A DNA stretch of 64,000 nt from a virus (IMGVR_UViG_3300037466_002980:234811-298810); one strand, 5' to 3'; shown: positions 13,113 to 54,204, numbered from the stretch's first letter. Notes: generated by a model not told the origin, from the letters alone. A program made the numbers and translations.

Positions 13113-13134
13113 GCTATGCTCCTTTGATGTTTTT

Positions 13135-13182
13135 ATTATAGCACTATTGTTTCAATGCACAAGCGGATTTACATCCTGTTAC
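13135..13182 (-). promoter_or_regulatory. sigma70-like promoter with upstream GTAA-N6-GTAA element (type example of ~17 copies)
   Basis: - strand GTAACAGGATGTAA-N6-TTGTGC-N16-TATAAT with TG extension; first-repeat positions on + coordinates 13169, 13657, 14397, 15000, 15490, 16350, 17074, 18354, 20770, 21726, 22415, 23632, 25492, 26125, 29514, 31393 and (+ strand) 29698. Confidence 0.85.
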
Positions 13183-13266
13183 ATCTTCTCGGAACTCTAA
13201 CTTAAGGTTAGAAGATGTATTGCGAGAAAGAAATGGCCAAAGGAAAGCCATGGCTTTCCTAACTCC

Positions 13267-13596
13267 TTAGAAGAGTGCTTGCTGCACAGGGGTGAGGTCG
13301 AGTTCTTCCACGATGCGCCCGCGATAGTCTCGGCGTACACGCGCTTTGAGTGCTTCGATTTTTTCGTACTTGAATTCGAGCACAGCTTCAACTTGTTTCC
13401 AAACGCGGCCATCTTTCTCGGGTTCGCTTCGTTTGTAAACGATAGCTTGCACGGTGTCGGGTGCAGCTTCCTTACCTTCCGCCCATGCTTGGTTCTCCTT
13501 GGCGCGGTCAAGGCAGAAGCTCTTGAGTTCCACGGAGACCTGCTGCGTGATATCCGCTGTGGCAGGTACGTTGGATTTGAGCTTGGTGGTGTGCAT
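13267..13596 (-). CDS. hypothetical early protein
   Basis: 109 aa, AGGAG SD, own promoter 13623-13670. Confidence 0.8.
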   Translation of the reverse strand: MHTTKLKSNVPATADITQQVSVELKSFCLDRAKENQAWAEGKEAAPDTVQAIVYKRSEPEKDGRVWKQVEAVLEFKYEKIEALKARVRRDYRGRIVEELDLTPVQQALF

Positions 13597-13666
13597 TTGC
13601 TACTCCTGCTGTTGATGTTTTTATTATAGCAGGAAAGTTTCAGCACACAAGCGAAATTACAACTTG

Positions 13667-13873
13667 TTACGTCTTCTTCTTTTCCGCCTCCAGAAACATC
13701 GCGTGAGCTGCTTCGCAATCACGGATGGCAAGTGCGAGATGAATATTGGCGTCCGCCAACTTGTTCCTCATTTCACCCGTCGGGGTGGTACTGATGGCGT
13801 ACTCGAGGCCTTGCTGGATAATTTCCAGTCCGCCGATGGAATTGCGCATGATGTAACCGACGGAGATGGTCAT
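13667..13873 (-). CDS. hypothetical protein
   Basis: Start MTISVGY preceded by GGGAG. Confidence 0.6.
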   Translation of the reverse strand: MTISVGYIMRNSIGGLEIIQQGLEYAISTTPTGEMRNKLADANIHLALAIRDCEAAHAMFLEAEKKKT

Positions 13874-14035
13874 CTCAGGCTCCCGGATAAAGAAGTGTCC
13901 AAGCAAGAAAGAGGGCAATGCCCTGGAAGAAACTGCGTTCGGCAGCCCGGCTGTAGGCACCAGTGAACAGGCCAGCCCAAAGGAAGTTGCTGGATGCCAG
14001 CCCAGCTTCCAGCACAAACAACGTGTGTACGGGGC

Positions 14036-14341
14036 TCATACGTGCTCCTTTGCGCGGCTATCCAGCAACGTATCTACCGCGTTGGGATACCGCATTTCGT
14101 ACGAGTGATCCACTTCCATCAGCTGGTACGTGGTGCCATCCGGTGCACTGACAAACACCTCGCCACCCAAGTCCATGCACACGGAGCCGATTGGGTCAGT
14201 GCAAATCGGATGGCCGTTGTGAAAGGTGGGATGGTCTTCCACGTACCCTGCGATGCACGCTTTCTGGGCATCTGGTGCTGCATACGGAAAGAGTATTCCC
14301 CACGGCATATCTGTCACGTACCAGTTGTGAAGTTTCACCAT
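14036..14341 (-). CDS. conserved phage hypothetical protein
   Basis: MVKLHNW...GYVEDHPTFHNG; SD and promoter 14363-14410. Confidence 0.7.
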   Translation of the reverse strand: MVKLHNWYVTDMPWGILFPYAAPDAQKACIAGYVEDHPTFHNGHPICTDPIGSVCMDLGGEVFVSAPDGTTYQLMEVDHSYEMRYPNAVDTLLDSRAKEHV

Positions 14342-14415
14342 GTTGCTCTCCTTGATGCTCTTAGTATAACACGCTATTCCTTTGGTGCAACCTGTTTTAC
14401 AACTAGTTGCATTCC

Positions 14416-14628
14416 TCAGCCGCGCTGTTCCATAATGAATGCAGGTGTGAGGAAGGTGCCCACCATGGCTACTGCGTCCAGTACCAAGAGGGAAAGCTGG
14501 CCGGCTATGGGCCAGTAATCCATTTGTTTCCCAAAATGGAGGCCGAGGTAACCCAGGAAAATCACAATCGTTATGCACAGGATTTCCACAGCCCACAGGA
14601 TGCTGAGAGTAACAATTTTCTTGTTCAT
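14416..14628 (-). CDS. small membrane protein
   Basis: Two TM segments, AGGAG SD. Confidence 0.7.
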   Translation of the reverse strand: MNKKIVTLSILWAVEILCITIVIFLGYLGLHFGKQMDYWPIAGQLSLLVLDAVAMVGTFLTPAFIMEQRG

Positions 14629-14637
14629 TTTGTTCTC

Positions 14638-14937
14638 CTAGTCATTCAGGATGTGCAGTTCCCACCCCTGGAGTTCGGGATGGGCTTGGAGTGTGCGTTG
14701 AGAAGGCCCGTAAATGAATACGTGCGTCTCGTCGCCGTCACCTTCATTGCGCAGTCTGTTCCAGAGGGTGATGTCCTGCAAGCGGTTGCTTTTGATAGCA
14801 ATGGTAGGTTGCATCTGCACTTGCAACCAGTCCCTAAAGGGCATTAAATCACTGCTAAAGCACACAAGCCACTTCTTATCCTTGTGTACGGAAAATTGTT
14901 CCCCGTTAAATCTTGGAACTGTGACAGGCATTACCAT
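14638..14937 (-). CDS. hypothetical protein
   Basis: AGGAG SD; promoter 14966-15013. Confidence 0.65.
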   Translation of the reverse strand: MVMPVTVPRFNGEQFSVHKDKKWLVCFSSDLMPFRDWLQVQMQPTIAIKSNRLQDITLWNRLRNEGDGDETHVFIYGPSQRTLQAHPELQGWELHILND

Positions 14938-15180
14938 TTGGAAAGCTCCTGCTGTTGATGCTTGAATTATAGCAGAAGCTTTCCAAAGTGCAACCACTGT
15001 TACACCTTGTTACGTCAGGATGCCTCACCGGACATCACTTTGATGCAACGGTGCTCTTGAGGTGATACTCGCAGCGTATAGGCAGCCGTATGGCATGCAA
15101 CACTTGTTGGAAATGTCCCAGCCGCTTCCCAATGCGCGTAGGACAATCCAGTGGTAACCCAAAGGTACAGAATAATCATC

Positions 15181-15435
15181 TTACTCCTCGTGGTGCAGGG
15201 CTCTGTTAAGCAGGTAGCCGAAAGAGATGACAGTCAGTACCTTCAGAAAAAGGTTGACAATTCCGACAGGAACCCATAGCACGAATGCCAGGAACATCTC
15301 CGCCGGCGGAGCACTGGTATCGAATGCTACAGCACGCAATTCAGCTTCCGCACGCGAAATGAAATACATCAGGTATGCGATGAGCCACATTGTGAAAAGT
15401 GTTGCAGCAATGATCAGAAGTCCTTGTAGTAACAT
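15181..15435 (-). CDS. membrane protein, paralog of 49411-49668
   Basis: IAYLMYFI...LAFVLWVP. Confidence 0.75.
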   Translation of the reverse strand: MLLQGLLIIAATLFTMWLIAYLMYFISRAEAELRAVAFDTSAPPAEMFLAFVLWVPVGIVNLFLKVLTVISFGYLLNRALHHEE

Positions 15436-15713
15436 GGTTACATCTCCTTTGTACTATTATAGCATGTCTCGCTTTCAATACAACCTATATTACACTTTGT
15501 TACACAATAGATCTCGGGACAAGACGATCAAGAGCCGAATTACTGCGGCCGAGGTTACATTTGTGCAAATATTTGTGCAAATATTTGTTCGCATATATCT
15601 GGCTCTGACTCTTGATCAAAGCTGCCGAGGCTGTTTGTAATTATGCATTATGCATTATACCACCCTCGGAACAGGTCATGAGGTCAAATTAACCACCATC
15701 CGAGAAGATATGG

Positions 15714-15745
15714 CCAAAAGAAAACCCTGCACGGAGCAGGGCTTC
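15714..15745 (-). terminator. rho-independent terminator
   Basis: CCCTGC-loop-GCAGGG stem followed by TTTTCTTTT on the - strand. Confidence 0.7.
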
Positions 15746-15758
15746 TTATGTGCGTGGA

Positions 15759-16265
15759 TTACGCTGCGGGTTGCTGTTCCGCGGCCTTCTTGGTGTTCCG
15801 GTTGCCCTTGCGCTTCATCTCGGACTTCGTGTCCTGCTTGGGAGCTTCGATGGCAGGCTGCTCTTGCACTTCAGCAGCGGGTGCCTCGAGTTCTTCCACC
15901 TTGGGCTGGAACGTGATTGCCAGGACGTTGCTTTCCAGCACCTCGGAGACAGCCCCTGCATCCTGTTGTTCGGGCTGTTGCGGGGGCACAACAACTTTCT
16001 TCTTGCGCCCGCCCTTCTTGTCCTCGGGGCGGCCCAGTCCTTCCAGCAGCGCAGCCAGTGCGGTGTCCTGTGCGGAAGCCTTGCGCGCTTGGATGAACGC
16101 GTGGTTGTAGTGGGACGAGGCAGCACCCAGCGTGATGCCGTAGTCCGTCATCGCCTGAGACATGACGCCCTTGCGGAACGCAACGTTGCCCTCGGGCGTT
16201 TTCACGCGGGTGGGAAGCGCAGCCATGAAGAGACGGTTGACGCCTTGACGAATGCCCTTATCCAT
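15759..16265 (-). CDS. 'DKGIR/EDKKGGRK' family protein copy 1 (putative helical DNA-binding domain + disordered tail)
   Basis: MDKGIR...AASSHYNHAF...EGLGRPEDKKGGRKKK. Confidence 0.8.
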   Translation of the reverse strand: MDKGIRQGVNRLFMAALPTRVKTPEGNVAFRKGVMSQAMTDYGITLGAASSHYNHAFIQARKASAQDTALAALLEGLGRPEDKKGGRKKKVVVPPQQPEQQDAGAVSEVLESNVLAITFQPKVEELEAPAAEVQEQPAIEAPKQDTKSEMKRKGNRNTKKAAEQQPAA

Positions 16266-16456
16266 ACTATGCACTCCTTCCAGTTTGCGCTTGACGCGCT
16301 GTTGAACATGATTGCAGTATAGCAGTGGTGCGCTATGATGCAAGTGGATTTACATCCTGTTACACATTCATGTTCTCTGTTGTTTCGATCCCACAGTCGG
16401 TGCGAGGAGAAGCGGTTTCTCGGAAAGGTCCCGGTGGATTCTCCGAGAAGAAGGCC

Positions 16457-16699
16457 TCAGCCCTTCCACCCGATGACGTCCTTCTCGGACTGAGAGATCT
16501 TCACCTTGAAACGGAGGCCAAGGGCATCGCCCTCCGCGGGAATCGTGTTCCATTGGCCTTCGTCACCGTTGGCGAAAGCCATCTGGATGGTGTCCGACAA
16601 CACCTTTTGAATTTCGATGGCATCGGCCAACGAATTGATGGTCACTTGAACACGGCCACCAATGAAATTGATGTTGACCGGTTGTTTGGTGGTAATCAT
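16457..16699 (-). CDS. hypothetical protein
   Basis: 80 aa, GGAG SD. Confidence 0.7.
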   Translation of the reverse strand: MITTKQPVNINFIGGRVQVTINSLADAIEIQKVLSDTIQMAFANGDEGQWNTIPAEGDALGLRFKVKISQSEKDVIGWKG

Positions 16700-17019
16700 A
16701 CGAGCTCCAGGAAGGATTCTTTGTAGACAACGAGAAACTCGCCGGTGGTCTTCCTTATGTAAACCTGTTCTTTCACTTCCTCGAAGATGTCATCTCCGGC
16801 GTAACTCATGAAAGCCCAGACACGAGAACTGAATAGGATTGGCTCCACTTCATCCATGGAAAGAGTGGGTCCCTCGTAGCCCTGTTCATTGCCCAAGGCC
16901 CAGTGCCAGAGAATGCCCTCTTCACGAATGTGTTGGAGCCATATCTCGTATTCGGCAGCATCCTCTTTGAACAAATCCTGGAGTGGATGCAACGGAACAA
17001 AACTTACTTTATCAGCCAT
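16696..17019 (-). CDS. hypothetical protein
   Basis: 107 aa, AGGAG SD, promoter 17040-17087. Confidence 0.75.
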   Translation of the reverse strand: MADKVSFVPLHPLQDLFKEDAAEYEIWLQHIREEGILWHWALGNEQGYEGPTLSMDEVEPILFSSRVWAFMSYAGDDIFEEVKEQVYIRKTTGEFLVVYKESFLELV

Positions 17020-17374
17020 GTTGCACTCCTTATGCGTATATTATAGTGCAGAAATGGAATCTCGCAACCAATTTTACATCTAGTTACGCGCCCTAGATTT
17101 GGATTTCAGATTTTAATTTCAGATTTTGGTTGTAGATTCCGAGGTTGGGTTATACACTGTACCTAAGATGACATTTGGGGCAATTTCGCCCTGTTAACCG
17201 TGGAGGAAGTCAGATGTCGCGAATCGTTGCTTTCGCTCACCGCTATGCGTCCCACGTGGGCGTCATTGACGCCAGTGTCACGCTTATCATTACCCAACAC
17301 ATCGGCACGCTTTCCGCGCTCGCTGCTGTGTTGTGTGTGCTGGATGTCATCTTCTACCGTGATGGAGGTGCGTT

Positions 17375-17641
17375 GTGATGGAAGTTCCACTGCTCGAGTT
17401 TTTCGAGGAAATCGCCGCCTGGATTCAACCATTACCAGAATCCGAGATGCGCATCCCCTGCCGTCCCAATGCTGAAGTGGTGCGCGAGGGCATGCACAAG
17501 CACCGTTGCCACAACTGTGGTACAACGTGGAAGCACAGCAACCTCTTGCCCCTGTTGGCAACGCCCAAAGAGAACAAGATTGCTCATTCGTGCCCCAAGT
17601 GCGGCACTGAAGAGTGGTTCAAGTACGGCCTCTTCTGCTGA
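17375..17641 (+). CDS. zinc-ribbon protein
   Basis: HRCHNCG...HSCPKCG. Confidence 0.65.
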   Translation: MMEVPLLEFFEEIAAWIQPLPESEMRIPCRPNAEVVREGMHKHRCHNCGTTWKHSNLLPLLATPKENKIAHSCPKCGTEEWFKYGLFC

Positions 17642-17913
17642 ACCCCAGATGTAACTGAACTCCGAGGCTGATCCCCTCGGAGATATTGCCCTTCAAGTTT
17701 CTCGGGTATTCTGAGGTGTCCAATCCCGAATGCCTTGAGGAAGAAGGCCTCGAAGAAGTTGTAACGCTCCTTCGGCAATTCGAGGTAGATCCGATCTCCT
17801 TCCTCGCGCCACTTGACCTGATAGCGCCTGAGGTCCCCTTTGCGGCCATTGAAAACAGCTCTGGTACCTCTTCGATTTTCAAGGACTAAGAGCATCAGTG
17901 TTTCGACATCCAA
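17584..17913 (-). CDS. hypothetical protein
   Basis: 109 aa ORF coupled to the upstream gene. Confidence 0.55.
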   Translation of the reverse strand: MDVETLMLLVLENRRGTRAVFNGRKGDLRRYQVKWREEGDRIYLELPKERYNFFEAFFLKAFGIGHLRIPEKLEGQYLRGDQPRSSVTSGVQQKRPYLNHSSVPHLGHE

Positions 17914-18296
17914 AGGATGAGTGGAGCGATGTCCCTGTGAACCTTCGCCAGTTCATGAAGCTGGTCATTCTTGAGTTCACGCTTCCAGTATTTGTGTTCC
18001 TGATTGAACCCTTTCACCATGTCATCATCCTCACAGATAGTCAGCAAGGACCCGAAGAGGGAATTGCCCGATTGTTCCATATTCAGCAAAGAATATGTCT
18101 TCTGGCCACCGTAGATGGTGGTGATGTTGATGTTGTCACCGATGACATTCGGGCTACCACCTTGCCCTGCATCGGAGAGAGTGAAATATGCGGCCAGGAG
18201 AGTGAGCTCGTCAGCCTTCAGCTTTCTGTTGGGGCCTTTGAGAACTTCATCATATGCATCATCACATGCCTGCATTTCACGGGTCCTGTCTTTCAT
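17895..18296 (-). CDS. hypothetical protein
   Basis: 133 aa, GGAG SD, promoter 18320-18367. Confidence 0.75.
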   Translation of the reverse strand: MKDRTREMQACDDAYDEVLKGPNRKLKADELTLLAAYFTLSDAGQGGSPNVIGDNINITTIYGGQKTYSLLNMEQSGNSLFGSLLTICEDDDMVKGFNQEHKYWKRELKNDQLHELAKVHRDIAPLILWMSKH

Positions 18297-18398
18297 TTGT
18301 GCCTAACTCCTATACTCAGATTATAATTCCAAATTCCAAATCTGCGACCACTTTTACATCTTGTAACTGGATCTAGGATTTGGAATTGAAACTCATAT

Positions 18399-18827
18399 TT
18401 AGGGTTTGGAGGGCCAAGGCTCGAATTTGCATGTTTTGATATTCGGATCTGTTTCCTTGTAATATTTGCAGAGCCTCCAAAACTCACGTTCCTTCTCACC
18501 ACTTTGCCAGATCACATACCCGAGAACGAATCCGACAACTGGTGCAGCGGTACTAGCACCTGCCAGCATCAGCAAGTTGTTCGTGGCAGCACCCCAGCTG
18601 GTAGCCGAAACGGCATCCGTAATAGGTAGTGCTTCCTCAATTGGAAGCGTTCTGGCATGCTCCACGAGTGCCATACGCAATGGAACTGTTGCAAAACCCA
18701 GCGGGTTCATTTCAACAGCATTGGTTGCAGCACTGGTGGTGATCGCATCCGCTGCAATTGCTTGATACTCGTCAGCGTGTACGTTAAACGAAATAGCAAG
18801 CAACGATGCTAGTAGCGTTGATTTCAT
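18399..18827 (-). CDS. exported/membrane hypothetical protein
   Basis: Signal peptide ending VHA; ADAITT...EMNPL; hydrophobic glycine-rich helices. Confidence 0.7.
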   Translation of the reverse strand: MKSTLLASLLAISFNVHADEYQAIAADAITTSAATNAVEMNPLGFATVPLRMALVEHARTLPIEEALPITDAVSATSWGAATNNLLMLAGASTAAPVVGFVLGYVIWQSGEKEREFWRLCKYYKETDPNIKTCKFEPWPSKP

Positions 18828-18882
18828 ATGCTAATGATAGCACAAAAGCTATCAAATGCAAGGATTTTTTGATGCCCTTGAA

Positions 18883-19167
18883 TCACGGAATACGCTCAAA
18901 TGGCGGATGTGCTACTTCAAGCGGAGCATTCCACATACGATAGAACTTCGGAGTATGTTCGATCTTCTTTTCCGGAACTATCTGTGGTATAGACTCTCGG
19001 ACCTTGTGGCCAACGGCCTTGATCCGCCCGTGCGAGGCCTGTACGAACGCCTTACACGATTTTGAGCAGAACCGTGCCCACCCCCTTGCCCGGTCGGCAA
19101 CCCGTGCTGTAAACAGCTTTTTGCAAGCTGGATTCGCGCAGGTGTACTGGGCAGTTGTAGGCATCAT
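18883..19167 (-). CDS. zinc-finger-like protein
   Basis: CANPACKKLF...RGWARFCSKSC. Confidence 0.65.
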   Translation of the reverse strand: MMPTTAQYTCANPACKKLFTARVADRARGWARFCSKSCKAFVQASHGRIKAVGHKVRESIPQIVPEKKIEHTPKFYRMWNAPLEVAHPPFERIP

Positions 19168-19430
19168 TACCCCTGTTTTTCGATGTGCTTGATGTGACTT
19201 TCCAAGGTGTCCCAGTAACCGCCCGCTTTGGCTGTCAGATCGCTCCAATAGTCACAATGAACACCTGTTGCGACTATCATTCGATGTTTTGTCTCAGGAT
19301 GTTCGTATTCGTAAGAACGAACGAGACCCTTGACTTCTAACGTCTTGGGCTGGAAGCCATGCTTTATCATGATCGGATAGTGCCACTGGGTTTCAACCTT
19401 GTGGACAACCTCATGAACATTTTTGTTCAT
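19167..19430 (-). CDS. hypothetical protein
   Basis: 87 aa ORF. Confidence 0.7.
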   Translation of the reverse strand: MNKNVHEVVHKVETQWHYPIMIKHGFQPKTLEVKGLVRSYEYEHPETKHRMIVATGVHCDYWSDLTAKAGGYWDTLESHIKHIEKQG

Positions 19431-19720
19431 TAGCTCAGCTTTCTGTAGAGGTTGGTGTACTGCTGAAGAATGCTGTTCGGAAAAGGCTTTGAAGTTGTCT
19501 TCAGATTTCCCATTGCTCCGGCAACCAAGAGCTTCAGAATGGACAATTCCTCGGGCCTAAACACCAAGCTGGCAGAGGAAAATTCCCCCACGATGCTCTG
19601 GAGAAGCAGTGGATCGAGGTTGTATTTTTTCGCAACCTCCACAACCTTTTCAATGGGCATGGTGCTCTCCTTACGGACACACGTGATACATGTTTTCGAT
19701 CTGCCTGACTTCCCAGCCAA
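19430..19720 (-). CDS. hypothetical protein
   Basis: ORF; real start probably MPIEK. Confidence 0.6.
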   Translation of the reverse strand: MAGKSGRSKTCITCVRKESTMPIEKVVEVAKKYNLDPLLLQSIVGEFSSASLVFRPEELSILKLLVAGAMGNLKTTSKPFPNSILQQYTNLYRKLS

Positions 19721-19958
19721 GCTCCTCGATAAGCTTCAGCTTTTCAGAATGAGTGGGACCTATGACATTGGCGGCATCGCCATTGCGCTTGAAGTATTCA
19801 TCTTCGAGCATTCGCTCGTGTCCCATGCGCAGCGTGTACCACTTTCCATTGCATTCCCATGAAGTGGAAAGATCCATGGGAACCGGAAAGCGTTTACCTT
19901 TCATCAAGGATGCTTTTTCGAGCTCGCTGCGATTGAACATAATTCTGATGCCCGTCAT
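19671..19958 (-). CDS. hypothetical protein
   Basis: 95 aa, GGAG SD. Confidence 0.65.
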   Translation of the reverse strand: MTGIRIMFNRSELEKASLMKGKRFPVPMDLSTSWECNGKWYTLRMGHERMLEDEYFKRNGDAANVIGPTHSEKLKLIEELGWEVRQIENMYHVCP

Positions 19959-19967
19959 GATATTCTC

Positions 19968-20303
19968 CTAGTACTCTTTCAAGCCGTTATCGAAATTCCA
20001 TCCGCAGAATTTGCACGGACCTTCACTGTCTTCCGACAGTCCGTGTTCCTTGCAGCGATGGCATTGTGTGGGTTCGAGGGCGCCGCAGATGTCGAACAGC
20101 GTCTCGGGCGGGGCGTATCTATCCCCATGAGATTCGTGAAAGGTATGGCCACCCCATCCGCTACATGCGGTACAGTAGTTGGACCATTTCTTCTTCCACT
20201 CGACGTTCTCGGCATCGACTTTCGCCATGTGCTCGGCAGCGATGCCCTCACCGCGTTCCACGTCGTCCCAGTATTGGGATTCCTCTTCAGTCATGTCAGG
20301 CAT
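19968..20303 (-). CDS. Cys-rich zinc-binding protein
   Basis: CTACSGWGG, CHRC, CKFCG. Confidence 0.7.
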   Translation of the reverse strand: MPDMTEEESQYWDDVERGEGIAAEHMAKVDAENVEWKKKWSNYCTACSGWGGHTFHESHGDRYAPPETLFDICGALEPTQCHRCKEHGLSEDSEGPCKFCGWNFDNGLKEY

Positions 20304-20610
20304 CGCATTTCCTCACCTGTTCGTCGACATTGAAGATGTACAGATTTCTGTCTCCATCACAGAAACGAGCTTCAGTGGGAGACATCTTCCGACAAAGATT
20401 GCCAGCGTCGTCCCAGAAGTAATCCTTGATTGCAAGGTCCTTGAAGGGGACCTTGACAGCATCCTTTAAGGTAATCTCAGTCATTAGAAGAGGCTCCTTT
20501 CGGATTTGTCGACTTCGGGTGTCATGTGAACACCGAACGCATTTGGATTGGGAGGAGTATTGCTGATGCTCATGAATGAGGCACCATCCCCACGAACATC
20601 TCTGCACCAA
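20296..20610 (-). CDS. hypothetical protein
   Basis: Real start probably MTEITLK (~20483), GGAG SD. Confidence 0.55.
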   Translation of the reverse strand: MVQRCSWGWCLIHEHQQYSSQSKCVRCSHDTRSRQIRKEPLLMTEITLKDAVKVPFKDLAIKDYFWDDAGNLCRKMSPTEARFCDGDRNLYIFNVDEQVRKCDA

Positions 20611-20747
20611 ACAAAGTGTTCCATGGCCGCGTCCGGTGTTGGGAAGGGACCGATGTATCCATCCACAAAATCCTGCACGTGGAGGTAGTATTCCTCCGTC
20701 TTGGGGATGGGCATGTTGTTGCGCTCCATATTGTTATTATAGCGCAA
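20484..20747 (-). CDS. hypothetical protein
   Basis: ORF downstream of promoter 20736-20783. Confidence 0.65.
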   Translation of the reverse strand: MRYNNNMERNNMPIPKTEEYYLHVQDFVDGYIGPFPTPDAAMEHFVWCRDVRGDGASFMSISNTPPNPNAFGVHMTPEVDKSERSLF

Positions 20748-20793
20748 ATGCTTTCAGCCGCAACCTTTTTTACAATTAGTTACGGCTGAATGG

Positions 20794-21078
20794 TTACCTG
20801 ACAGTTTCCTCGATCAAGTGGAGCCAGTCGAGGTATTCGTTGGGAAGTCCCCAAACCATACTTCCGTTGGCATCCGCCTCACCCGTAGGCTTCGCATGAA
20901 CACGCCAGATTGTCTCTTCCAGCATGTGGAAAGCCTTGCGCGTGATGTGATGAAGCACAATGGACTTCTTCTCGGGCACAGGGCTCGACACTAGAGCCGA
21001 GATCGCAGCAACTGGATGCCAGAAGGCAAACCAACCATTTTGGAAGCCTTCGACGAATGCGATGAGAAGTTTCTTCAT
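20794..21078 (-). CDS. hypothetical protein
   Basis: 94 aa, GGAG SD. Confidence 0.7.
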   Translation of the reverse strand: MKKLLIAFVEGFQNGWFAFWHPVAAISALVSSPVPEKKSIVLHHITRKAFHMLEETIWRVHAKPTGEADANGSMVWGLPNEYLDWLHLIEETVR

Positions 21079-21080
21079 TC

Positions 21081-21278
21081 TTATTTCTCCAGGTCAGCGA
21101 TAATCTGCGAAGAACCATCGCTGTAGGCATGTGTGGACAACGTGAGAAGAGAGCCGTCTTCCATGTGAATTTGAAGACCTTTGTGCTCGTCATACATATC
21201 GAGCAAGAAGAAAACTTCCTTGACCTTCTTCCCTTCGAGGGTTTCCTTCACTATGGTCAAATCATTTTTCGTGGCCAT
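21081..21278 (-). CDS. hypothetical protein
   Basis: 65 aa, AGGAG SD. Confidence 0.7.
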   Translation of the reverse strand: MATKNDLTIVKETLEGKKVKEVFFLLDMYDEHKGLQIHMEDGSLLTLSTHAYSDGSSQIIADLEK

Positions 21279-21292
21279 GACTTTCTCCTAAA

Positions 21293-23571: not shown

Positions 23572-23641
23572 CCAACTCTCCTGCTGTTGATGCTATTATT
23601 TTAGCAGAATTATTTCAGATGTCTATTGTTTTTACACCCGC

Positions 23642-23914
23642 TTACACTAGTCGGTCTGGAACCTTAATTCCGAATTTCGTCCAGAAGCTCTTCTTGCTGT
23701 GAATGTTCCCAAGCAAGTCCATTACAACTTCAAAATCTCCAGACATGGATTCCTCGTTGAGGAGAATCCAATCATCCACAATTTGTTTCGCGAGCCTTTT
23801 CTGGAAAACCGGATCGGTCATTAAGGCTCGAAGCTGTTTGGGCGAGATCTCCACATCAGCGTAGTGAAAGAGACACTTAACCATCCTTTGTGTAACATTC
23901 ACTGTGAGTTTCAT
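23642..23914 (-). CDS. hypothetical protein
   Basis: 90 aa, GGAG SD. Confidence 0.7.
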   Translation of the reverse strand: MKLTVNVTQRMVKCLFHYADVEISPKQLRALMTDPVFQKRLAKQIVDDWILLNEESMSGDFEVVMDLLGNIHSKKSFWTKFGIKVPDRLV

Positions 23915-23959
23915 AATTCTCTCCTTGAGATGTCCACAGGCCGACCAGGCAGTACGAGG

Positions 23960-24175
23960 TCAATCGCGCATCAGGCCTTGAAAGGAATTCCGCATGGATT
24001 GAAGTGAAGCATCGAATATGGAGTCGATTTCTTCCTTCATTGCTTCGTTTGCATCATCCGATGGAAGATTGAGTGTTGGTCTCGCATGGACTGTTCGAGC
24101 CTTCTGCCCGATGAGATTACCTTCGTTATCGACAACCGTCATTGAAACGATCACTCTGAAATCTTTGGTAGCCAT
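23960..24175 (-). CDS. hypothetical protein
   Basis: 71 aa. Confidence 0.65.
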   Translation of the reverse strand: MATKDFRVIVSMTVVDNEGNLIGQKARTVHARPTLNLPSDDANEAMKEEIDSIFDASLQSMRNSFQGLMRD

Positions 24176-24817
24176 TTATTTCTCCAGCCAGTGCCAATGG
24201 TCATCGTGAAACTCACCCTTTTCGCAGTGCTCCACTTCATGACCCAAATCAATTGGGAAGCCAACCACGTTACAGGATCCGCCGTGTTCAGGATCCGGAT
24301 CGGCATAGAAACCACCAACTGCGTGCAGCTTTCCAGCGTATAGCACCGCGCTGCCACGTGAAGTGATGTAGATGCCGCCGTTGGGTCCATACAGCTTTTC
24401 TGTGAGCTTGGTGATCGTCAACGGAGAATTGTTTTCGGAAATCACCCAAAAGTTGATGCGGCGAGCACCATCGATGGGCTTTTCGTTGACCACATGCGCA
24501 CCTTTATCCACACATTGTTGCAGGAGGTCACCCATGCGATGAAGGGCCTTTTCCATGCCGACTGTCTTCTGTACAGTCTTTCCATCCACAATCTTTTCGA
24601 CCGTGAATGTTTCCCTCAGGTAGATGTAGCAGGTCCCGTCCCTAAATTCCGAGACAGGGCTGTCGATACGCACCCACTTCACATCCAGTGTGTATGTGGG
24701 CGGCCCGAGTTTCGCATTCAAGACTTCCTGCGAGGGAGAAGGGCCGTCTGGAAACTCCTTTCCCATGGCGGCCATTGCCACTGCTAATGAAAGCAGCGTG
24801 ACAGCAAATTTCTTCAT
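24176..24817 (-). CDS. exported protein with C-terminal HExxH (putative zinc metalloprotease-like)
   Basis: Signal peptide MKKFAVTLLSLAVAMAAMG; DLGHEVEHC. Confidence 0.6.
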   Translation of the reverse strand: MKKFAVTLLSLAVAMAAMGKEFPDGPSPSQEVLNAKLGPPTYTLDVKWVRIDSPVSEFRDGTCYIYLRETFTVEKIVDGKTVQKTVGMEKALHRMGDLLQQCVDKGAHVVNEKPIDGARRINFWVISENNSPLTITKLTEKLYGPNGGIYITSRGSAVLYAGKLHAVGGFYADPDPEHGGSCNVVGFPIDLGHEVEHCEKGEFHDDHWHWLEK

Positions 24818-25428
24818 ACCAGCAGGATGTCTTTCATGGCCTGGATTGCGACCATGTTGTCCAGGGAGATGACGCGCACCACGACATCGTGGAACACGCC
24901 ATTTGTTTTGTTCTCGACGAACATCGGAGGTTCCAGGAGCTTCTTCGCTTCTGCAGGCGTCAGGTGCCCTGCCACGAAGTTCTTGTCCACAAGCTGGTTG
25001 TTGTGGAGATACACACTTTCCGCCCCGTTATACATAGCGAAAAGATAGTGCTGCTCCTGCTTCGTCTTGTGGCGCACCAAACTGAAGCAGTCCTCGAGGT
25101 GCTCGAACCAGTTTTCGCTGGATTCGAATTTCTTGATCTCTGCCGGCGTGTTGATGCCCAACTTCTTGGCGGAACGCTTCACAGCATCTTCGTACACGCT
25201 GTTGAAGTCGTGAATGTGATTGAACAGTTGCACATTCGCAACGGTGATCTTGCGGATGTCGACATCCTTGAATGCCGCAGCCGTCTTCACAGGGGTTACC
25301 TGCGTGATTTGTGCGAAAGTGGTGCCGTGGAGTGCGGCTAGCAGATTCTTCACATCCACGGGAAGCACCCGGGTGGAGTTCTGCTGGGCCTTCAGCGCAA
25401 GCTGGGCTTCGCTAAGTGTGAGTTGCAT
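24814..25428 (-). CDS. conserved phage hypothetical protein
   Basis: 204 aa, GGAGG SD, promoter 25457-25505. Confidence 0.8.
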   Translation of the reverse strand: MQLTLSEAQLALKAQQNSTRVLPVDVKNLLAALHGTTFAQITQVTPVKTAAAFKDVDIRKITVANVQLFNHIHDFNSVYEDAVKRSAKKLGINTPAEIKKFESSENWFEHLEDCFSLVRHKTKQEQHYLFAMYNGAESVYLHNNQLVDKNFVAGHLTPAEAKKLLEPPMFVENKTNGVFHDVVVRVISLDNMVAIQAMKDILLV

Positions 25429-25867
25429 TAAGCACCTCCGTTGTTGTGATGTTGTAACTATAGTATCAACGGAATTGTTTGTCTACCGCTTTTACAACCT
25501 GTTACAACAAGAAAAAGCACCGAAGGTCTCGAACCTTCCTTCTGGGTTACGCCAGAGGCCGCACTCTTCGTTGTACTTCCGACGAGCAATGCTTTTTGCC
25601 TTCCTCTACCAGGGTATCGGCATGCCGCGGTGGTTTACCCGCGACACATTATTCACCCTGTTTCTCAGTATCACTGCGGCCTCTGGAGAAGTTAGCCCCC
25701 TTCGGCGTTTGTGGACTGAGCGAGCTATTGTGGTCGATTGTCGTACCAGACTTTCAACCTTATTGCCCCTAGGCACCCCCAACTTTCGTTGAGTTAAAAG
25801 TACCTGGTACTGCCTATAAAAGAAGTCAAAAAGCACTCTTGCACACAGCAGCTATTATATACGGCCC

Positions 25868-26083
25868 CTATATGCTGTCAACTTGTTTTGGAGGCTTTAT
25901 CCAACATCCTCCCTTGCATTCAGGACATGGAATGATATCACCAAATCCGCTTGCATCATCCAGCCCGGATCCATTACAGTGAGTGCAACGAACAAAGCCC
26001 ATGCGCTTGAATGCTTCTTCATTGGATTTTTCAGCGGCCTTTCGAGCTTCATCTCCAATGATGTCGAGTGTCTTGTCATTCAT
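25868..26083 (-). CDS. small protein with DnaJ-type CxxCxGxG zinc motif
   Basis: CTHCNGSG...CPECKGG. Confidence 0.65.
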   Translation of the reverse strand: MNDKTLDIIGDEARKAAEKSNEEAFKRMGFVRCTHCNGSGLDDASGFGDIIPCPECKGGCWIKPPKQVDSI

Positions 26084-26465
26084 GTGTATATAATAGTACC
26101 AATCCTTTCCAATGTCAACCATTATTACACTTTGTTACACCTACGACGATCTCGGCCGCAAGTGATCAAGGCTCTGACCCTTAATCCCGAGACTAGCACA
26201 GACCTCGTGATATAAGCTGGACCTTACTAGTGATGTTAGAGATGCACCAAAGTTTATGCATACAAAAGTTGTATCAAAATATGAATTTCAAATTTAAATC
26301 TCGGATTTGGAATAAAGATTGTTAGAGAAACCTTTTAACGTAAGATCTAAATTTAAGACTAGCGAGCTTACCTCGGACTTATTTTAAATAACTCGAATAA
26401 AAAGGCGAGATCTTTCCGGCCACAAGAAAAGGAACAACTCCAAAGAATTGTCCCTTTCAGAAGGA

Positions 26466-27341
26466 TTACAGAGGAGGAAGTCCCATACGTGCCCGGACGA
26501 AGGGGTCGGTGTATTGCGGTTGTTTGGCTTCCGTGACGGTTGTGTTCGATTTCACGGCGCCGGTGGTGGTCGATACTCGACGGTAGGCTTCTGCAACGGT
26601 GGCGTTCATCTTGAGAAGCTCACGTGCAGCCATTCGGTCTGCTTCCGTGCCCAAGGCCGTCATGCTGTTCGCGTAATAGCGAAGGTTGCAGTCTTCGTCC
26701 TTGATGGTTGTTCCGAATGAAACACCGAACCCAACCCCTTGTGCACCACCGCTCGAAGAGCCCAGGCAGGTTCCGTTGGTTGCCTGCAAGGCCGGTGCGT
26801 ATGCCGTGTTCACCGGTGCTCGCGGATTGTTGATGTTCACTGCCGTGTCGTTGTTCACAGTGTTGCCGCCACTGTTGGAAGTGGAAGCACCGGTTGTGTT
26901 CGTATTCGTGTTGGTGACAGCACCCGTTGTTGCAGTGGAAGCACCGGTTGTGTTCGTATTCGTGTTGGTGACAGCACCAGTGGATGCTGTTGCGTTTCCG
27001 CCGGTTGAGCTGGAGGTGGAAGACGAATTGCCGCTGCCGTTGATGCTCTGTTGTTGGCCTTGCAATTGTCCTTGCGTATTGCTGTTCGTGTTGTTGCTCG
27101 TGTTGCTGTTCGCATTGGTGATAATGCTGGCAACACTGCCGCCACTGCCGCCGTTTCCACCATTGCCTCCACCACCACCGTTTCCGCCGTTTCCACCGTT
27201 GCCTCCGGCACCGCCGCCGTTGCCGCAGTTATTGGTGCAGCCCGCACCATTGGTACCACCCGAGCCCGGAGGATCTGCATACGCAACCCCGACAGCAAGT
27301 GCCATGATTGCCACACACAGATAGTTCTTCTTGAACTTCAT
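26466..27341 (-). CDS. exported Gly/Asn/Thr-rich protein with Cys-containing C-terminal domain
   Basis: Signal peptide ending AYA, GGNGGNGG tract, TCLGSSSGGAQGVGFGVSFG...DCNLR. Confidence 0.8.
   Translation of the reverse strand: MKFKKNYLCVAIMALAVGVAYADPPGSGGTNGAGCTNNCGNGGGAGGNGGNGGNGGGGGNGGNGGSGGSVASIITNANSNTSNNTNSNTQGQLQGQQQSINGSGNSSSTSSSTGGNATASTGAVTNTNTNTTGASTATTGAVTNTNTNTTGASTSNSGGNTVNNDTAVNINNPRAPVNTAYAPALQATNGTCLGSSSGGAQGVGFGVSFGTTIKDEDCNLRYYANSMTALGTEADRMAARELLKMNATVAEAYRRVSTTTGAVKSNTTVTEAKQPQYTDPFVRARMGLPPL
26880..26978. repeat. 54-bp-period in-frame direct repeat (45 bp identical)
   Basis: agtggaagcaccggttgtgttcgtattcgtgttggtgacagcacc at 26880 and 26934. Confidence 0.9.
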
Positions 27342-27674
27342 TGCTTTCTCCAAAATTGACATCCGGCTACATTATTGTTCAAAGAACAATCCAGCAGATT
27401 GCCGGAAAACATCTACTGGTTCATGTACCATTGTGGTCATTATAATTGTATCGTGACACGTGTCAAGCGATTTTTGAAGATCTTGGAACCATAAGAAAAG
27501 GGCGGTGCCCACCTGGGTCGCCCTTTACCGGGAGTGGCAATTGCGACAGTCCTTACTTCATCGGCGATCTCCTTTAAAGGAAATGAAGCGTTACGGAAGT
27601 GACCGAATCGATGTACACCTGCGCAACGTCTTTATTATTATATATGTTGTGGTTCCTGTCAAGTGACTTTTTGA

Positions 27675-27977
27675 TTATTTCCGGAGAGCCAGAAGCTTTT
27701 GTGTCATCTCGACAGCCATTTGTTTCCCGTTGTGCTTATCGGGATGGCAGAGCATCAACAATTTCTTGATTTCTTCTTCTGTGAATCCGGATACCTTGAT
27801 CCTCTTCTCGATCTTTACCACCCTGGGTGGCTTTCTCATTTCCTTTTCAAGAAGATCCCCCAGGTCATGAAGCCTATGGGAAAGATAGACACTTCTTTCT
27901 TGCAACATGGCATTCTCTCCCATGAGTTTTAGGTTTTCATCGGCGAGGGCATCATACTTTTTCTTTCGCACGAACAT
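27675..27977 (-). CDS. coiled-coil protein with minimal C-terminal J-domain-like HPD motif
   Basis: IKKLLMLCHPDKHNG; AGGAG SD. Confidence 0.6.
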   Translation of the reverse strand: MFVRKKKYDALADENLKLMGENAMLQERSVYLSHRLHDLGDLLEKEMRKPPRVVKIEKRIKVSGFTEEEIKKLLMLCHPDKHNGKQMAVEMTQKLLALRK

Positions 27978-28236
27978 TATGGATCTCCTCAATCTTTTCA
28001 ACCACACGCATTTGTTTCTCGGCCACGCGGAATGCTTCGCAGACGAGAATTTCCGCGGCACTGTCTGGAGACTCTTTCAACCTTCGTCGAAGATCTTTTG
28101 CCCAGGCTTTGTGCTTTTCGGGAAGATTGTCTTCGTATTCTCGGATCTGTCTTTCCAGGCGGATGACGATGAGCCGTTGTTCGATTCTGGCTCGAATCCG
28201 ATGTTGAAAGTAATTCAGCTTGTGTATTAATCCCAT
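27952..28236 (-). CDS. hypothetical protein
   Basis: Start MGLIHK. Confidence 0.55.
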   Translation of the reverse strand: MGLIHKLNYFQHRIRARIEQRLIVIRLERQIREYEDNLPEKHKAWAKDLRRRLKESPDSAAEILVCEAFRVAEKQMRVVEKIEEIHNVRAKEKV

Positions 28237-28285
28237 GCACACATTATAACATCTGTGCATGGGACCACAAGCACTGAAAGGATTG

Positions 28286-28750
28286 TCAGGCACCCCAGTG
28301 AACGCCGGGTCTGCCGAATTGTGAAGGCATCGGAGCCACCGTGAGTGCATTGGGACACGGTGTTGCGAGAACGACTTCCCTGGGTGGCTCCACAAGGGTA
28401 ATGGTACAGCGGTCCTCGAGCTTCTCGAAGGTTGTCTGGGAGACAGGTCCGGAGAACGGTCGTCCTCCGATTTTCCGCATCCGCTTCACAGTGGTTCTCG
28501 GTGCGGCAATTCCAACAATGACTTCCTCGATAGGAGACCATTGTGTCTTGAAAGTATAACAGGTGCTGCTTCTGTTATCCTTCATACTTATTGCCTGTTC
28601 AATATCGGATGTTGTTGCACCCCAGAAATCCCCGTTCCAGAAGGAATAATGGGCCTGCTCTTCTCCTGGCCAGAAACGACCATATAGCTGGTCGAAATGT
28701 CTTATCTTGTAAACACCCGCTTGGATGGGAAAACCATCATTCCATTGCAT
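28286..28750 (-). CDS. hypothetical protein (N-terminal P..GVY module shared with 57247-57816)
   Basis: MQWNDGFPIQAGVYKIR; GGAG SD. Confidence 0.65.
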   Translation of the reverse strand: MQWNDGFPIQAGVYKIRHFDQLYGRFWPGEEQAHYSFWNGDFWGATTSDIEQAISMKDNRSSTCYTFKTQWSPIEEVIVGIAAPRTTVKRMRKIGGRPFSGPVSQTTFEKLEDRCTITLVEPPREVVLATPCPNALTVAPMPSQFGRPGVHWGA

Positions 28751-28760
28751 GTTTCGCTCC

Positions 28761-29066
28761 TTAGAAGTCCTTGACAATGATGTTGTTGTTGGAATCCCGT
28801 TTGTAGGAACGCACAAGGCGACCTTGGCGAGCATCGATGACGAGTGCCTGTGCGTACTCGCCCGAATTGAGCTCTGACCTGGCACAGTGTGAAGCACAAT
28901 GCCCGTATGCACGTTCCAGGCTATCCGTGCTGCCACTGGTGTCCTGTTTGGTGAAGTCCCCCACGATGTGGTAGTAATACATGCGGTAACGCTTGGTAGC
29001 GTTCCTGTTGCGTTTCACAGTGGGGACACCACGTAGTTGAAACTTGCGAATTGCCGCTGTCGCCAT
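28761..29066 (-). CDS. hypothetical protein
   Basis: 101 aa, SD present. Confidence 0.7.
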   Translation of the reverse strand: MATAAIRKFQLRGVPTVKRNRNATKRYRMYYYHIVGDFTKQDTSGSTDSLERAYGHCASHCARSELNSGEYAQALVIDARQGRLVRSYKRDSNNNIIVKDF

Positions 29067-29246
29067 TTCCTCTAGCTCCTTAGTATTTCCGCCAACCCGA
29101 TATCGGCGAATAAATCTTCAAGGGAGTATCGCCATGATAAACGATACATTCGAATCCGACTGTCACAGCAGCACGCTCCGCCGCTTGAAGCGTGTCGAAT
29201 GCGTCCTGTGTGAAATATTGGAAGTTGATAAGGTAGATACGGTATT

Positions 29247-29480
29247 TCACGATTCCACCTTCTCCACAAGGATAGTGATCTTCGCAGTGGCAATGCTTTT
29301 GTCTGACCACCAATCCATTTCCGCAATGATGCTCTTGGAAACGGTGTTCATCACTGCATCCAGCATTGTTTCTTTGTCTGACACCCTGAAGTTCTCTTCA
29401 GGATCGTTTTCGTTTATCACGTTAGCTGTTGCGAGCCATGGCATATATAATATTCCTATCACTATCGCATTACCATACAT
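29247..29480 (-). CDS. hypothetical protein
   Basis: ORF downstream of promoter 29479-29527. Confidence 0.55.
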   Translation of the reverse strand: MYGNAIVIGILYMPWLATANVINENDPEENFRVSDKETMLDAVMNTVSKSIIAEMDWWSDKSIATAKITILVEKVES

Positions 29481-29697
29481 AGTATGTTAGAATTACTTCA
29501 ACGTCAACTATTGTTACACTCTCTTACATCCAATTCCAACTCATATTCATCTCGGGTCCATGTTTTGGCATTCGGCTTTATATAAACACCCGAGGCGAAT
29601 ACCTATTCTACATATTCTTACAAATCCTAGAATACTGTATGAAAATCTTCCGCCTCGTAGTTACAGTAAGGCTGAGTTGATTCGAAGGAACGAAATT

Positions 29698-29746
29698 GTA
29701 ACAGGTTGTAAAAACTGATTGACACGCATACCCACCCTATATATAG
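29698..29746 (+). promoter_or_regulatory. sigma70-like promoter with GTAA-N6-GTAA element
   Basis: GTAACAGGTTGTAA-N7-TTGACA-N17-TATAGT. Confidence 0.8.
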
Positions 29747-29783
29747 TAGAGCTACTCGCAACCCACTTAAGAAAGGAAACGCG

Positions 29784-30503
29784 ATGGACAAGGGTATTCG
29801 CCCGGCGATGAACGCCAAATTCCTGGAACTGCTCCCGAAACGAGCATCCGGGGAACTCACCAACACGAAGTTCCGTGCAGAAGTCATGGGCTTCGGGCAG
29901 AAGGAATACGGCATTTCGGTGGCCAGCGCGGCAACGCACTACAACCATGCTTTCAAGGAAGCACGGAAGGCGGCAGCCGCAGGTGACGAAACGCTGCAGA
30001 AGCAACTGGAAGGCCTGGGCCGTCCGGAAGACAAGAAAGGCGGGCGCAAGAAGAAGGCCGCTGCTCCTGCGACTCCGAATGCTGCAACGACCATCCAGGC
30101 AAATCCGGCTGCTGCATCCGGCACCGACACGGCGGCCAACGATGCGCAGGGTGCGGTGACCACCACTGCAGAAGCCGGCGGCGAAACTGCTGCGGGCACT
30201 GCGCAGGAAGGCCAGACCATCAACACCGAAGAAGTCGGCAAGGTGGATGTGGTGCTTGGCGATCAACCCGAGCAAGCAGCGAACGAAACGGTGGCAACCG
30301 ACGTGGTCCAGGAAGTCAGCATCGACGAACAGTCGGTGTGGGCCGTGAAGAAGCCGGGACCGATGGGCATCGGGGAAGGCAAGATCATCGCAGAAAAGCT
30401 CACGAAAGCTGCTGCGCTCGAACTGATCGACCGCGCCGCCAAGAGCAAGAAGGGCAAGCTGGAACTGGTGGCCCCGAAGCAGGAACCTGCTGAAGCTGCC
30501 TAA
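29784..30503 (+). CDS. 'DKGIR/EDKKGGRK' family protein copy 2
   Basis: MDKGIR...SAATHYNHAF...EGLGRPEDKKGGRKKK, Ala/Thr-rich linker; GC-rich codons. Confidence 0.85.
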   Translation: MDKGIRPAMNAKFLELLPKRASGELTNTKFRAEVMGFGQKEYGISVASAATHYNHAFKEARKAAAAGDETLQKQLEGLGRPEDKKGGRKKKAAAPATPNAATTIQANPAAASGTDTAANDAQGAVTTTAEAGGETAAGTAQEGQTINTEEVGKVDVVLGDQPEQAANETVATDVVQEVSIDEQSVWAVKKPGPMGIGEGKIIAEKLTKAAALELIDRAAKSKKGKLELVAPKQEPAEAA

Positions 30504-30525
30504 TCCGGGGCATTCACAAGGAAGT

Positions 30526-30547
30526 GGGGCCAAGTGCCCCTTTTCTT
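30526..30547 (+). terminator. rho-independent terminator
   Basis: GGGGC-CAAGT-GCCCC followed by TTTTCTT. Confidence 0.75.
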
Positions 30548-31054
30548 ATGGCCAGATGGTTCTCGGACGATCAGAAGTGGCAGGCCCGAGACAATAGAAT
30601 CCCGTACATACTACAGCTATATTCTCTACTGAATATACATAGCCCTACGACGGTTTTACAGCCCCTACAAGCGTTTTATTTCTAGGGGGTAAGGGTCGAG
30701 CAGCTGGCAGGTATTCTAGGGGCCTCGATCTTCATAAAAGAATAGGTAATACCTTCTCATTAAGGTTACTGCACAGTATTTTATTCCCACGCGAGGAGAA
30801 ACCCTACATTCTCTCGGAATACTCTACGGCACCTCGCCGAGGCCGGGTTTCAACCAAGACCTCGCCCCGAGAACGAATCCCTCAAATACCTTTTCGATGA
30901 AACCCACAATTTCGATTTTCTGTATTCAGTTTTCAAGACTTTCACCTTTCGGATTTCTCAAGTTTCGAGTTTCGGTTATCGTGAATTTCACCTTTCACTA
31001 TACCGGATTTCAATCTCGCATTTGATTGTGGCTAAGCCCGAGCCTATTACGAGA

Positions 31055-31294
31055 TCACTTGAGTTTGGATTTGACTAGGACTTCTCTGATACAAGTTGGG
31101 CACGTGACGATTTTCTCTTTATACATAGCCCATCCGGCCGCTTCCGGAATCTTCCCACAGAAAGCAGCCACGTTTGAATACTCGTTCTTCTGCAGATGCT
31201 CCATATCGGGCACTGCATGAACAACTAATCCGCGTGTATTAGGATGGCTACTTCCCAATGTAGCGGAAACCCATTCAACGTTGCTCTCAGACAT
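31055..31294 (-). CDS. hypothetical protein (Cys/His motif)
   Basis: VVHAV...AFCG...VTCPTC. Confidence 0.65.
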   Translation of the reverse strand: MSESNVEWVSATLGSSHPNTRGLVVHAVPDMEHLQKNEYSNVAAFCGKIPEAAGWAMYKEKIVTCPTCIREVLVKSKLK

Positions 31295-31558
31295 TCGAGA
31301 TTTACAGAAAGTTGCATTACTAATGGTTATTAGGGTGTTCTACCCACCATATCCAGTATTATTACACAGATTATCGAAAATGTCAATACTTAATACGTTT
31401 GTTTACATTTTTAATCTCAACTTGAAATCCTGCCTATAGACAGGAATCCTAGACCAAAACCTAACCTAAAATCCAAATCTAGAATTTTGATTTAAGATTC
31501 CTATTTAAAATTCCTATATAGAATTATGAATCAAGGTCAGAAAATTTAGCACAATGAT

Positions 31559-54119: not shown

Positions 54120-54152
54120 ATTAAGCTCCTTAATTATTCAAATAATTACAAC

Positions 54153-54188: not shown

Positions 54189-54204
54189 CCGAAACCGCAC
54201 ACCA

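Follow-up and report, generated by a model that had tools for sequence, protein, structure and literature searches.

A tandem TGTAAC box upstream of the promoters of a GC-rich island in a soil jumbo phage and its possible reading by a host response regulator

The promoters of a GC-rich gene island in an uncultured jumbo phage repeatedly carry a tandem box with TGTAAC-like half-sites just upstream of the -35 element, which raises the question of what protein, if any, reads this box and whether it is supplied by the phage or by its host. The window analysed is a stretch of 64,000 nucleotides, corresponding to bases 234,811-298,810 of the 362,810-bp viral record IMGVR_UViG_3300037466_002980, which has terminal repeats; all positions are given in window coordinates. 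The phage is a jumbo myovirus encoding a family-B polymerase, a T4-type terminase with an intein-like insert, a ClpB-like ATPase and a sheath protein sharing 43-45% identity with those of Pseudomonas phage PA5oct, Agrobacterium phage Atu_ph07 and Pectobacterium phage CBB, and its DNA is present in soil and rhizosphere metagenomes from eight studies. The island (12.8-31.5 kb; 12800..31500), a compositional feature that the original prediction did not raise, has a GC content of 49-52% as compared to ~33% for the rest of the genome and is the most GC-rich block of the record. It comprises ~45 small ORFan genes in ~16 short operons, almost throughout on the minus strand, none of which could be convincingly assigned to a Pfam or named PHROG family, and no recognisable DNA-binding domain is found among their products. 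Early expression of these genes, as originally suggested, is plausible.

A tandem box at a fixed distance from the -35 element

Seventeen sites had been predicted to share the box, and all of them are present. Sixteen are read on the minus strand as GTAAC-N4-TGTAA, while one (29698) is on the plus strand, and the consensus across the sites is tGTAACA-N3-TGTAAaA. The exact form, GTAACNNNNTGTAA, occurs eleven times in the entire 362,810-bp genome, with every copy confined to the 16.5 kb between 13169 and 29711. When up to one mismatch is allowed, 21 matches are found in the window against 2.87 +/- 1.62 in shuffled sequences, and none of 100 shuffles reaches 21. The spacing from GTAAC to GTAA on the minus strand shows a sole peak at 10 bp (12 pairs, against ~1 at other spacings). 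Promoters outside 13-31.4 kb had been said to lack the box, and none of the 141 sigma70-like matches outside the island carries it at up to one mismatch and any tested offset. The site at 31393 exists but proved to be a weak variant with three mismatches. No description of this box was found in a literature search.

In an alignment anchored on the box, positions 1-5 and 10-14 each hold 1.1-1.8 bits, above both the -10 and the -35 element, of which TTG alone is kept. The A at positions 3 and 13 is retained in both halves, and G1, C5 and G11 are invariant or nearly so. The variable parts are the 3-4 bases separating the half-sites and the 6-bp linker to the -35. The concentration of information in the half-sites next to a variable linker is the pattern expected of a protein site, rather than of a recently copied cassette.

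The fixed placement of the box was borne out, with a gap of 6 bp to the -35 in 16 sites and 7 bp in one. Among the 16 minus-strand sites the spacer is 16 bp in eleven, 17 bp in four and 15 bp in one, and it is the 6-bp gap together with the mostly 16-bp spacer that yields the 28 nt reported between box and -10; the plus-strand site combines its 7-bp gap with a 17-bp spacer. A TG dinucleotide precedes the -10 in eight of 16 promoters, so that an extended -10 does occur, but its description as usual was generous. The boxed -35 elements are weak, matching the consensus at a mean of 3.75 of six positions and scoring three or fewer in 11 of 16, whereas the -10 elements are near consensus (mean 5.4 of 6). 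Three consensus promoters in the island are without the box (-35 at 25881, 27466 and 27662), and each has a perfect TTGACA (6 of 6). A ribosome-binding site and ATG follow 14-30 nt downstream of most boxed promoters. If transcription starts ~7 nt after the -10, the box is predicted to occupy approximately -54 to -41, with its centre near -47 to -48. A class II activator site overlaps or replaces the -35 and is centred near -41.5. The 6-bp gap and the retained TTG leave the box clear of the -35, and the class II arrangement originally proposed thus does not apply.

Recurrence of the box in other phages

A scan of viral contigs for the box together with a promoter yielded 30 loci, while the 16-mer TGTAACAGTTTGTAAC alone occurs in at least 120 viral stretches, in part by chance in A/T-rich DNA. 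Distances to promoters were counted for the 233 distinct boxes in the retrieved loci. Where the orientation is that of the window, good sigma70-like promoters begin 6 bp (24 cases) or 15-18 bp (12 cases) beyond the box. In the inverted orientation, which reads GTTAC-N5-GTTAC on the coding strand, the gap is 10-11 bp (37 cases) or 20-21 bp (21 cases), and the distinct promoters listed for this orientation number 34 and 18, respectively. Steps of one helical turn with a 4-5-bp offset tied to orientation point to an asymmetric protein that would touch RNA polymerase from one face. That the A is retained at both position 3 and position 13 speaks, like this offset, for a site that is asymmetric and tandem.

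The carriers belong to unrelated lineages. The first consists of T5-like phages; their large terminase and that of Vibrio T5-like phages share 50% identity. Jumbo relatives of the present phage, namely G003 and the L011 group, form the second; the core genes of G003 are ~70-75% identical to those of this phage at the nucleotide level, and its GC-rich blocks likewise include boxed promoters, three of which are at its truncated end. The third comprises contigs of 55-60% GC with a terminase like those of podoviruses of Ralstonia and a lake gammaproteobacterium. Cultured phages yielded no megablast match to the island or to two box-carrying contigs, and nothing relevant was returned by blastn when the query was a TGTAAC array or a T5-like boxed promoter. 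An Rfam search identified one tRNA in the window and nothing more, and nothing in three of the carrier loci.

Among the genes of the operon that follows the boxed promoter in the T5-like contigs is a homolog of dmp (36% identity, E = 3e-15), which in T5 belongs to the first-step-transfer DNA. The first-step genes of T5 are transcribed before most of the phage DNA enters the cell. By analogy the boxed operon looks pre-early, and only host factors would then be at hand to read its promoter. Seven T5-like loci (L024, L032, L056, L082, L094, L096 and L158) also contain a module composed of the inverted box, 10 bp, TTGACG/A, a conserved spacer, TATAAT, TTTGGCGC and a hairpin. A single locus may have as many as five copies of this module, the apparent products of which are very short structured transcripts.

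Candidate readers of the box

The likeness of the box to the sites of OmpR-family response regulators, which had been pointed out previously, is confirmed and extends to both bases and period. The half-site TGTAACA falls within the OmpR motif TGTWACAW derived from chromatin immunoprecipitation sequencing in Salmonella (PMC3586657), and the 10-bp period of the half-sites is that of the OmpR sites of Yersinia, which span 20 bp as a pair of 10-bp sub-elements (PMC3050692). The OmpR box listed for Acidithiobacillus caldus tetH, GTAACAAGTTGTAACAGGTG, starts with the same 14 bases as make up the box at 13657 (PMC9861516). The OmpR-activated promoters of enterobacteria (ompF F1-F3 and ompC C1-C3) are alike in the half-site TGTAACA, in the head-to-tail 10-bp repeats and in a weak -35 that adjoins the sites without overlap, but the window has one dimer site per promoter instead of three, and its sites are far closer to the consensus than chromosomal OmpR sites. 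The CpxR box of E. coli, GTAAA-N5-GTAAA, has the same 10-bp period, and GTAAA is the second half-site in ten of the 17 window sites; the first half-site is, however, GTAAC in the window, and both halves are GTAAC in other phages. The motifs of IHF, Fis, CRP, CtrA, PhoB, ArcA and WalR were set aside on account of the wrong period or bases.

The favoured explanation, to which about an even chance is given on the basis of the sequence comparisons, is that the boxes mark promoters which depend on an activator, namely a host response regulator of the OmpR/CpxR type. The promoters would be genuine, of the sigma70 type, and serve the small genes of a hypervariable GC-rich island, each offering one site at approximately -54 to -41 on which a sequence-specific protein could bind head-to-tail to two TGTAAC(A) half-sites 10 bp apart. 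The bound protein would contact RNA polymerase and make up for the poor -35, and it is this compensation that would render the promoters activator-dependent; such dependence is only predicted from the -35 scores of 3.75 of 6 in boxed and 6 of 6 in boxless promoters. The signalling state of the host, for example envelope stress at infection, would switch the island on, and a phage protein would be unnecessary. The original prediction offered either a phage activator or a host regulator; the latter is the more economical, since the same box serves unrelated phage lineages, while a MotA-like phage activator finds no support. CtrA, a regulator of the OmpR/PhoB superfamily, recognises TTAA-N7-TTAA with an 11-bp period, and some of the phages under its control encode their own CtrA. 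A precedent for control of phage genes by a response regulator of the host type is CtrA-controlled gene expression in alphaproteobacterial phages (PMC9437464). The present phage differs from these in that no OmpR-type output domain (Trans_reg_C) is encoded in its genome.

Several observations weigh against a host regulator of this type. The geometry of the E. coli ompF promoter was derived from its sequence, the positions of F1-F3 and a 110-nt leader. Its half-site hexamers (GTTACA on the coding strand) start 15, 25, 35 ... bp upstream of the -35, and the inverted class in other phages follows ompF, with GTTACA half-sites 15 and 25 (or 25 and 35) bp upstream. The half-sites in the window do not have this geometry, as they lie 10 and 20 bp upstream, read GTAACA in the opposite orientation and are 5 bp closer. 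The full 16-mer is near-invariant across many contigs, which is stricter than known OmpR sites and would also fit a dedicated phage-carried protein. Among 596 Gb of bacterial genomes, the forward box followed by a -35 gave four matches, which is at chance level and without a proper -10, and the inverted box with a -35 gave 48 matches, ~four of them independent, again at chance level and with no host regulon seen. No excess of the box is found in PA5oct, Atu_ph07, RsoM2USA, CBB, Vibrio phage 234P1 and T5, nor in three podovirus relatives. Several hosts of these boxless cultured relatives are expected to encode OmpR. The promoters described for PA5oct are plain TTGAC and TATAATA, with no upstream box (PMC7318152).

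The inverted-box matches in bacterial genomes include 45 of 48 that are copies of one insertion-sequence end in five metagenome-assembled genomes of Acidobacteriota, three of them labelled Vicinamibacterales. In this end (L174-L221) the inverted box is followed after 10 bp by an outward-facing TTGACA ~21 nt from the tip, which may represent a mobile half-promoter using the same box, or chance. The Acidobacteriota genomes in question show no excess of GTAAC-N5-GTAAC, and the insertion-sequence end is a weak lead at most towards a soil host.

Next in standing, although unlikely, is a phage-encoded or virion-injected protein that would read the box and control a delayed-early or middle regulon similar to those of T4 MotA or phi29 p4. 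The near-invariance of the 16-mer over many viral contigs and the chance-level occurrence of either box and promoter pattern in bacterial chromosomes would both fit such a protein, while the convergence of unrelated phage proteins on one 15-mer is unlikely and the pre-early appearance of the boxed operon in the T5-like contigs speaks for factors already in the cell. The MotA/AsiA middle promoters of T4 are alike in forming a phage regulon with an extra box and a sigma70 -10. The MotA box, however, replaces the -35 at about -30, whereas the box in the window lies at -54 to -41 with TTG kept, and domains of MotA and AsiA (PF09114 and PF09010) are absent from the phage genome, so that the T4 MotA-like logic put forward for these promoters is not upheld.

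The candidate reader named for the phage was the winged-helix protein of the HTH_39 family (81 aa; minus strand, 53874-54119), whose gene region (53874..54200) includes a palindrome related to the box, GTTACAATTTGTAAC, which overlies the -10 of the gene. The G003 ortholog, at 70% identity, retains the GIKNLRARM stretch, presumably the recognition helix; the palindrome in its promoter nevertheless differs, and the island boxes of G003 are unchanged. A constant GIKNLRARM alongside a changed own-promoter palindrome makes this protein a poor candidate. The protein was found in G000 and G003 only and not in other box-carrying records, and palindromes of its type number three genome-wide, close to expectation, all of which renders its role as reader improbable. 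An open reading frame (ORF) at 53202-53804 (plus strand), which by eye resembles a GIY-YIG homing endonuclease, is arranged tail-to-tail with the HTH_39 gene.

The boxed operon of the T5-like carriers encodes two D5-like DNA-binding paralogs, which would suit a phage-borne reader, but the D5-like family is without a match in this genome with either the D5-like hidden Markov model or phrog_1725, and was rejected as a shared reader. Two sub-threshold matches to phrog_323 occur in this genome, and the same model matches all 14 control genomes. Among ~7,500 ORFs of the box-carrying loci only lineage-specific families were seen, and no DNA-binding protein common to the carriers and this phage was found; one more widely shared family (121 aa) has no obvious DNA-binding features by eye.

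The box might also serve negative control, as a stoperator, early shut-off or roadblock site that silences the island or stops read-through between cassettes. The sites are asymmetric, have one orientation relative to transcription, stand at every cassette junction and often touch the upstream stop codon, as a roadblock might. A roadblock has no need, however, of a fixed distance to the next promoter, and the constant place just upstream of the -35, the one-turn phasing and the weak boxed as opposed to perfect boxless -35 elements are hallmarks of activation, which leaves this explanation improbable.

Slightly less probable again is that no dedicated factor exists, the box being either a UP-like contact for the alpha C-terminal domain of RNA polymerase or the conserved part of a spreading promoter cassette. 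The -54 to -41 interval is UP-element territory. UP elements in E. coli are A/T tracts, located at -40 to -60 and free of specific G or C, whereas G and C are invariant in the box. The cassette version draws on the strain indels that end inside promoters and on the further similarities among promoter copies, which include TGAAA after the -35 and a common leader in several of them. The promoter early stem-loops (PeSLs) of T4-type phages are promoter cassettes that mediate shuffling in ORFan regions (PMC2839356, PMC4122927). The island resembles them in that early sigma70-type promoters and ribosome-binding sites recur across a hyperplastic ORFan region, and in that indels end in the cassettes. 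PeSLs, however, feature a stem-loop and an A/T-rich upstream region, in place of which the window has a specific box of two half-sites, and a hairpin directly upstream is found at the 25492 promoter only, and perhaps also at 13169. The box is furthermore far better conserved than the remaining cassette, and it recurs with otherwise unrelated promoters in unrelated phages, in two orientations and at phased distances.

That the island is an assembly chimera holding the regulon of another genome can be dismissed almost entirely: its edges show a sharp 17-point GC jump, but in X4, an independent run of another study, a 23,038-bp contig covers the island and both junctions at ~98% identity and thereby excludes an artefact, other soil and rhizosphere runs contain 48-71% of the island's words, and G003 likewise combines GC-rich blocks with boxed promoters.

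More broadly, and as a tentative proposal that is somewhat less probable than the host regulator at this locus, TGTAAC-N4-TGTAAC may be an undescribed upstream element by which unrelated uncultured phages of soil and freshwater place their first genes under a single conserved host regulator of the OmpR/CpxR type. Plain strong sigma70 promoters are the usual picture of early transcription in lytic phages. Should blocks of early genes in several lineages instead need a host two-component regulator, the success of infection would be tied to the signalling state of the host, and the signal might come from infection itself, through perturbation of the envelope. Promoter strength or logic might then vary with the orientation and helical phase of the box, and a shared element would let co-infecting phages exchange early-gene cassettes. 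The box would also be a cheap marker for early-gene islands in uncultured phages, could group phages by a common host type and might be useful for building regulator-controlled phage promoters.

Individual promoters, strain variation and neighbouring features

The boxed promoters are on the minus strand unless otherwise indicated. The first, at 13135..13182, has its box at 13169-13182, its -35 (TTGTGC) at 13157-13162 and its -10 (TATAAT) at 13135-13140. It is followed by promoters at 13623..13670 (box 13657-13670, -35 TTGTGT, -10 TATAAT), 14363..14410 (box 14397-14410, a GCAAC variant, -35 TTGCAC, -10 TATACT), 14966..15013 (box 15000-15013, -35 TTGCAC, -10 TATAAT), 15456..15503 (box 15490-15503, -35 TTGTAT, -10 TATAAT), 16316..16363 (box 16350-16363, -35 TTGCAT, -10 TATACT), 17040..17087 (box 17074-17087, -35 TTGCGA, -10 TATAAT), 18320..18367 (box 18354-18367, a GTTAC variant, -35 TCGCAG, -10 TATAAT) and 20736..20783 (box 20770-20783, -35 TTGCGG, -10 TATAAT). 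The promoter at 21691..21739 (box 21726-21739, a GCAAC variant) has a weak core, with -35 TTGCTC and -10 CACAAT. Further along are those at 22381..22428 (box 22415-22428, -35 TTGCAT, -10 TATAAT), 23598..23645 (box 23632-23645, a GTAAG variant, -35 TAGACA, -10 TAAAAT), 25457..25505 (box 25492-25505, -35 TAGACA, -10 TATAGT), which has a terminator hairpin (25522-25538) before it, and 26090..26138 (box 26125-26138, -35 TTGACA, -10 TATTAT). The promoter at 29481..29527 (box 29514-29527, a GTAAG variant, -35 TTGACG, -10 CATACT) is divergent from the sole plus-strand promoter at 29698..29747 (box 29698-29711, -35 TTGACA at 29719, -10 TATAGT), which drives a gene for a 239-aa protein (29784-30503). 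The degenerate box at 31393-31406, in the promoter at 31358..31406 (-35 TTGACA, -10 AATAAT), marks the upstream edge of the island.

At 13667-13670 and 23642-23645, the TAA within the first GTAAC half-site is the stop codon of the upstream gene, and in other phages a TAA is often situated 2-3 nt ahead of the box; the overlaps of stop codon and box reflect tight packing of the cassettes. Inverted repeats are located at 13600-13630, 14940-14990, 20715-20745, 22350-22400 and 25430-25475, where an arm proximal to the -10 pairs with the ribosome-binding-site region of the same cassette. They are 11 nt long at the 15000 promoter, between the spacer and the ribosome-binding-site region, and 6-7 nt at the four others. 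The 5' arm is positioned just upstream of, or overlapping, the -10 and hence outside the transcript of its own promoter, and the predicted pairing would hide the ribosome-binding site in read-through RNA from upstream only, a logic known from the lysozyme and soc genes of T4.

Comparison with independent soil and rhizosphere assemblies revealed strain indels or replacements at ~13112-13123, 14384-14988, 21079-21284, 21737-21909, 25516-25522 and 27785-27945, several of which terminate in or beside boxed promoters, as does that starting at 21737 in the weak-core promoter. Runs X3 and X4 lack 603 bp between 14384 and 14988, and with them a two-gene operon; both ends of this deletion fall in the 8-mer GTGCAACC, which the 14397 and 15000 promoters have in common in their -35 regions. 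It is proposed that the repeated promoter doubles as a recombination substrate through which gene cassettes are gained and lost, and the promoter-bounded indels show how ORFan islands in jumbo phages turn over.

Two further blocks of raised GC content (43-46%) are located at 42000-54000 and 58000-62000. A family of paralogs of ~130-240 aa, with a homolog in the relative G003, is shared between the first and second GC blocks (15759-16343, 29784-30503, 50851-51354 and 52639-53037). Within the island, the minus-strand region 25510-25850 spans ~330 nt from the boxless promoter with its -35 at 25881 to the hairpin and T-run terminator at 25522-25538 and contains no convincing ORF. Its fold energy has a z score of -4.1 relative to shuffles and its only Rfam match is to GIR1 (E = 0.57), with no family assigned, and it is considered a candidate structured non-coding RNA on the basis of the modelled fold. 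The gene at 26466-27341 (minus strand) codes for a 291-aa protein with a signal-peptide-like start and a long low-complexity region of Gly, Asn, Ser and Thr (phrog_20531), and metagenome contigs break in its repeats. A 204-aa protein encoded at 24814-25428 (minus strand) has a 41%-identical homolog at 987-1598 of L057, a 123-kb viral contig of 39% GC, where it is encoded beside a TGTAAC array, and this pair hints at gene exchange between box-using phage lineages.

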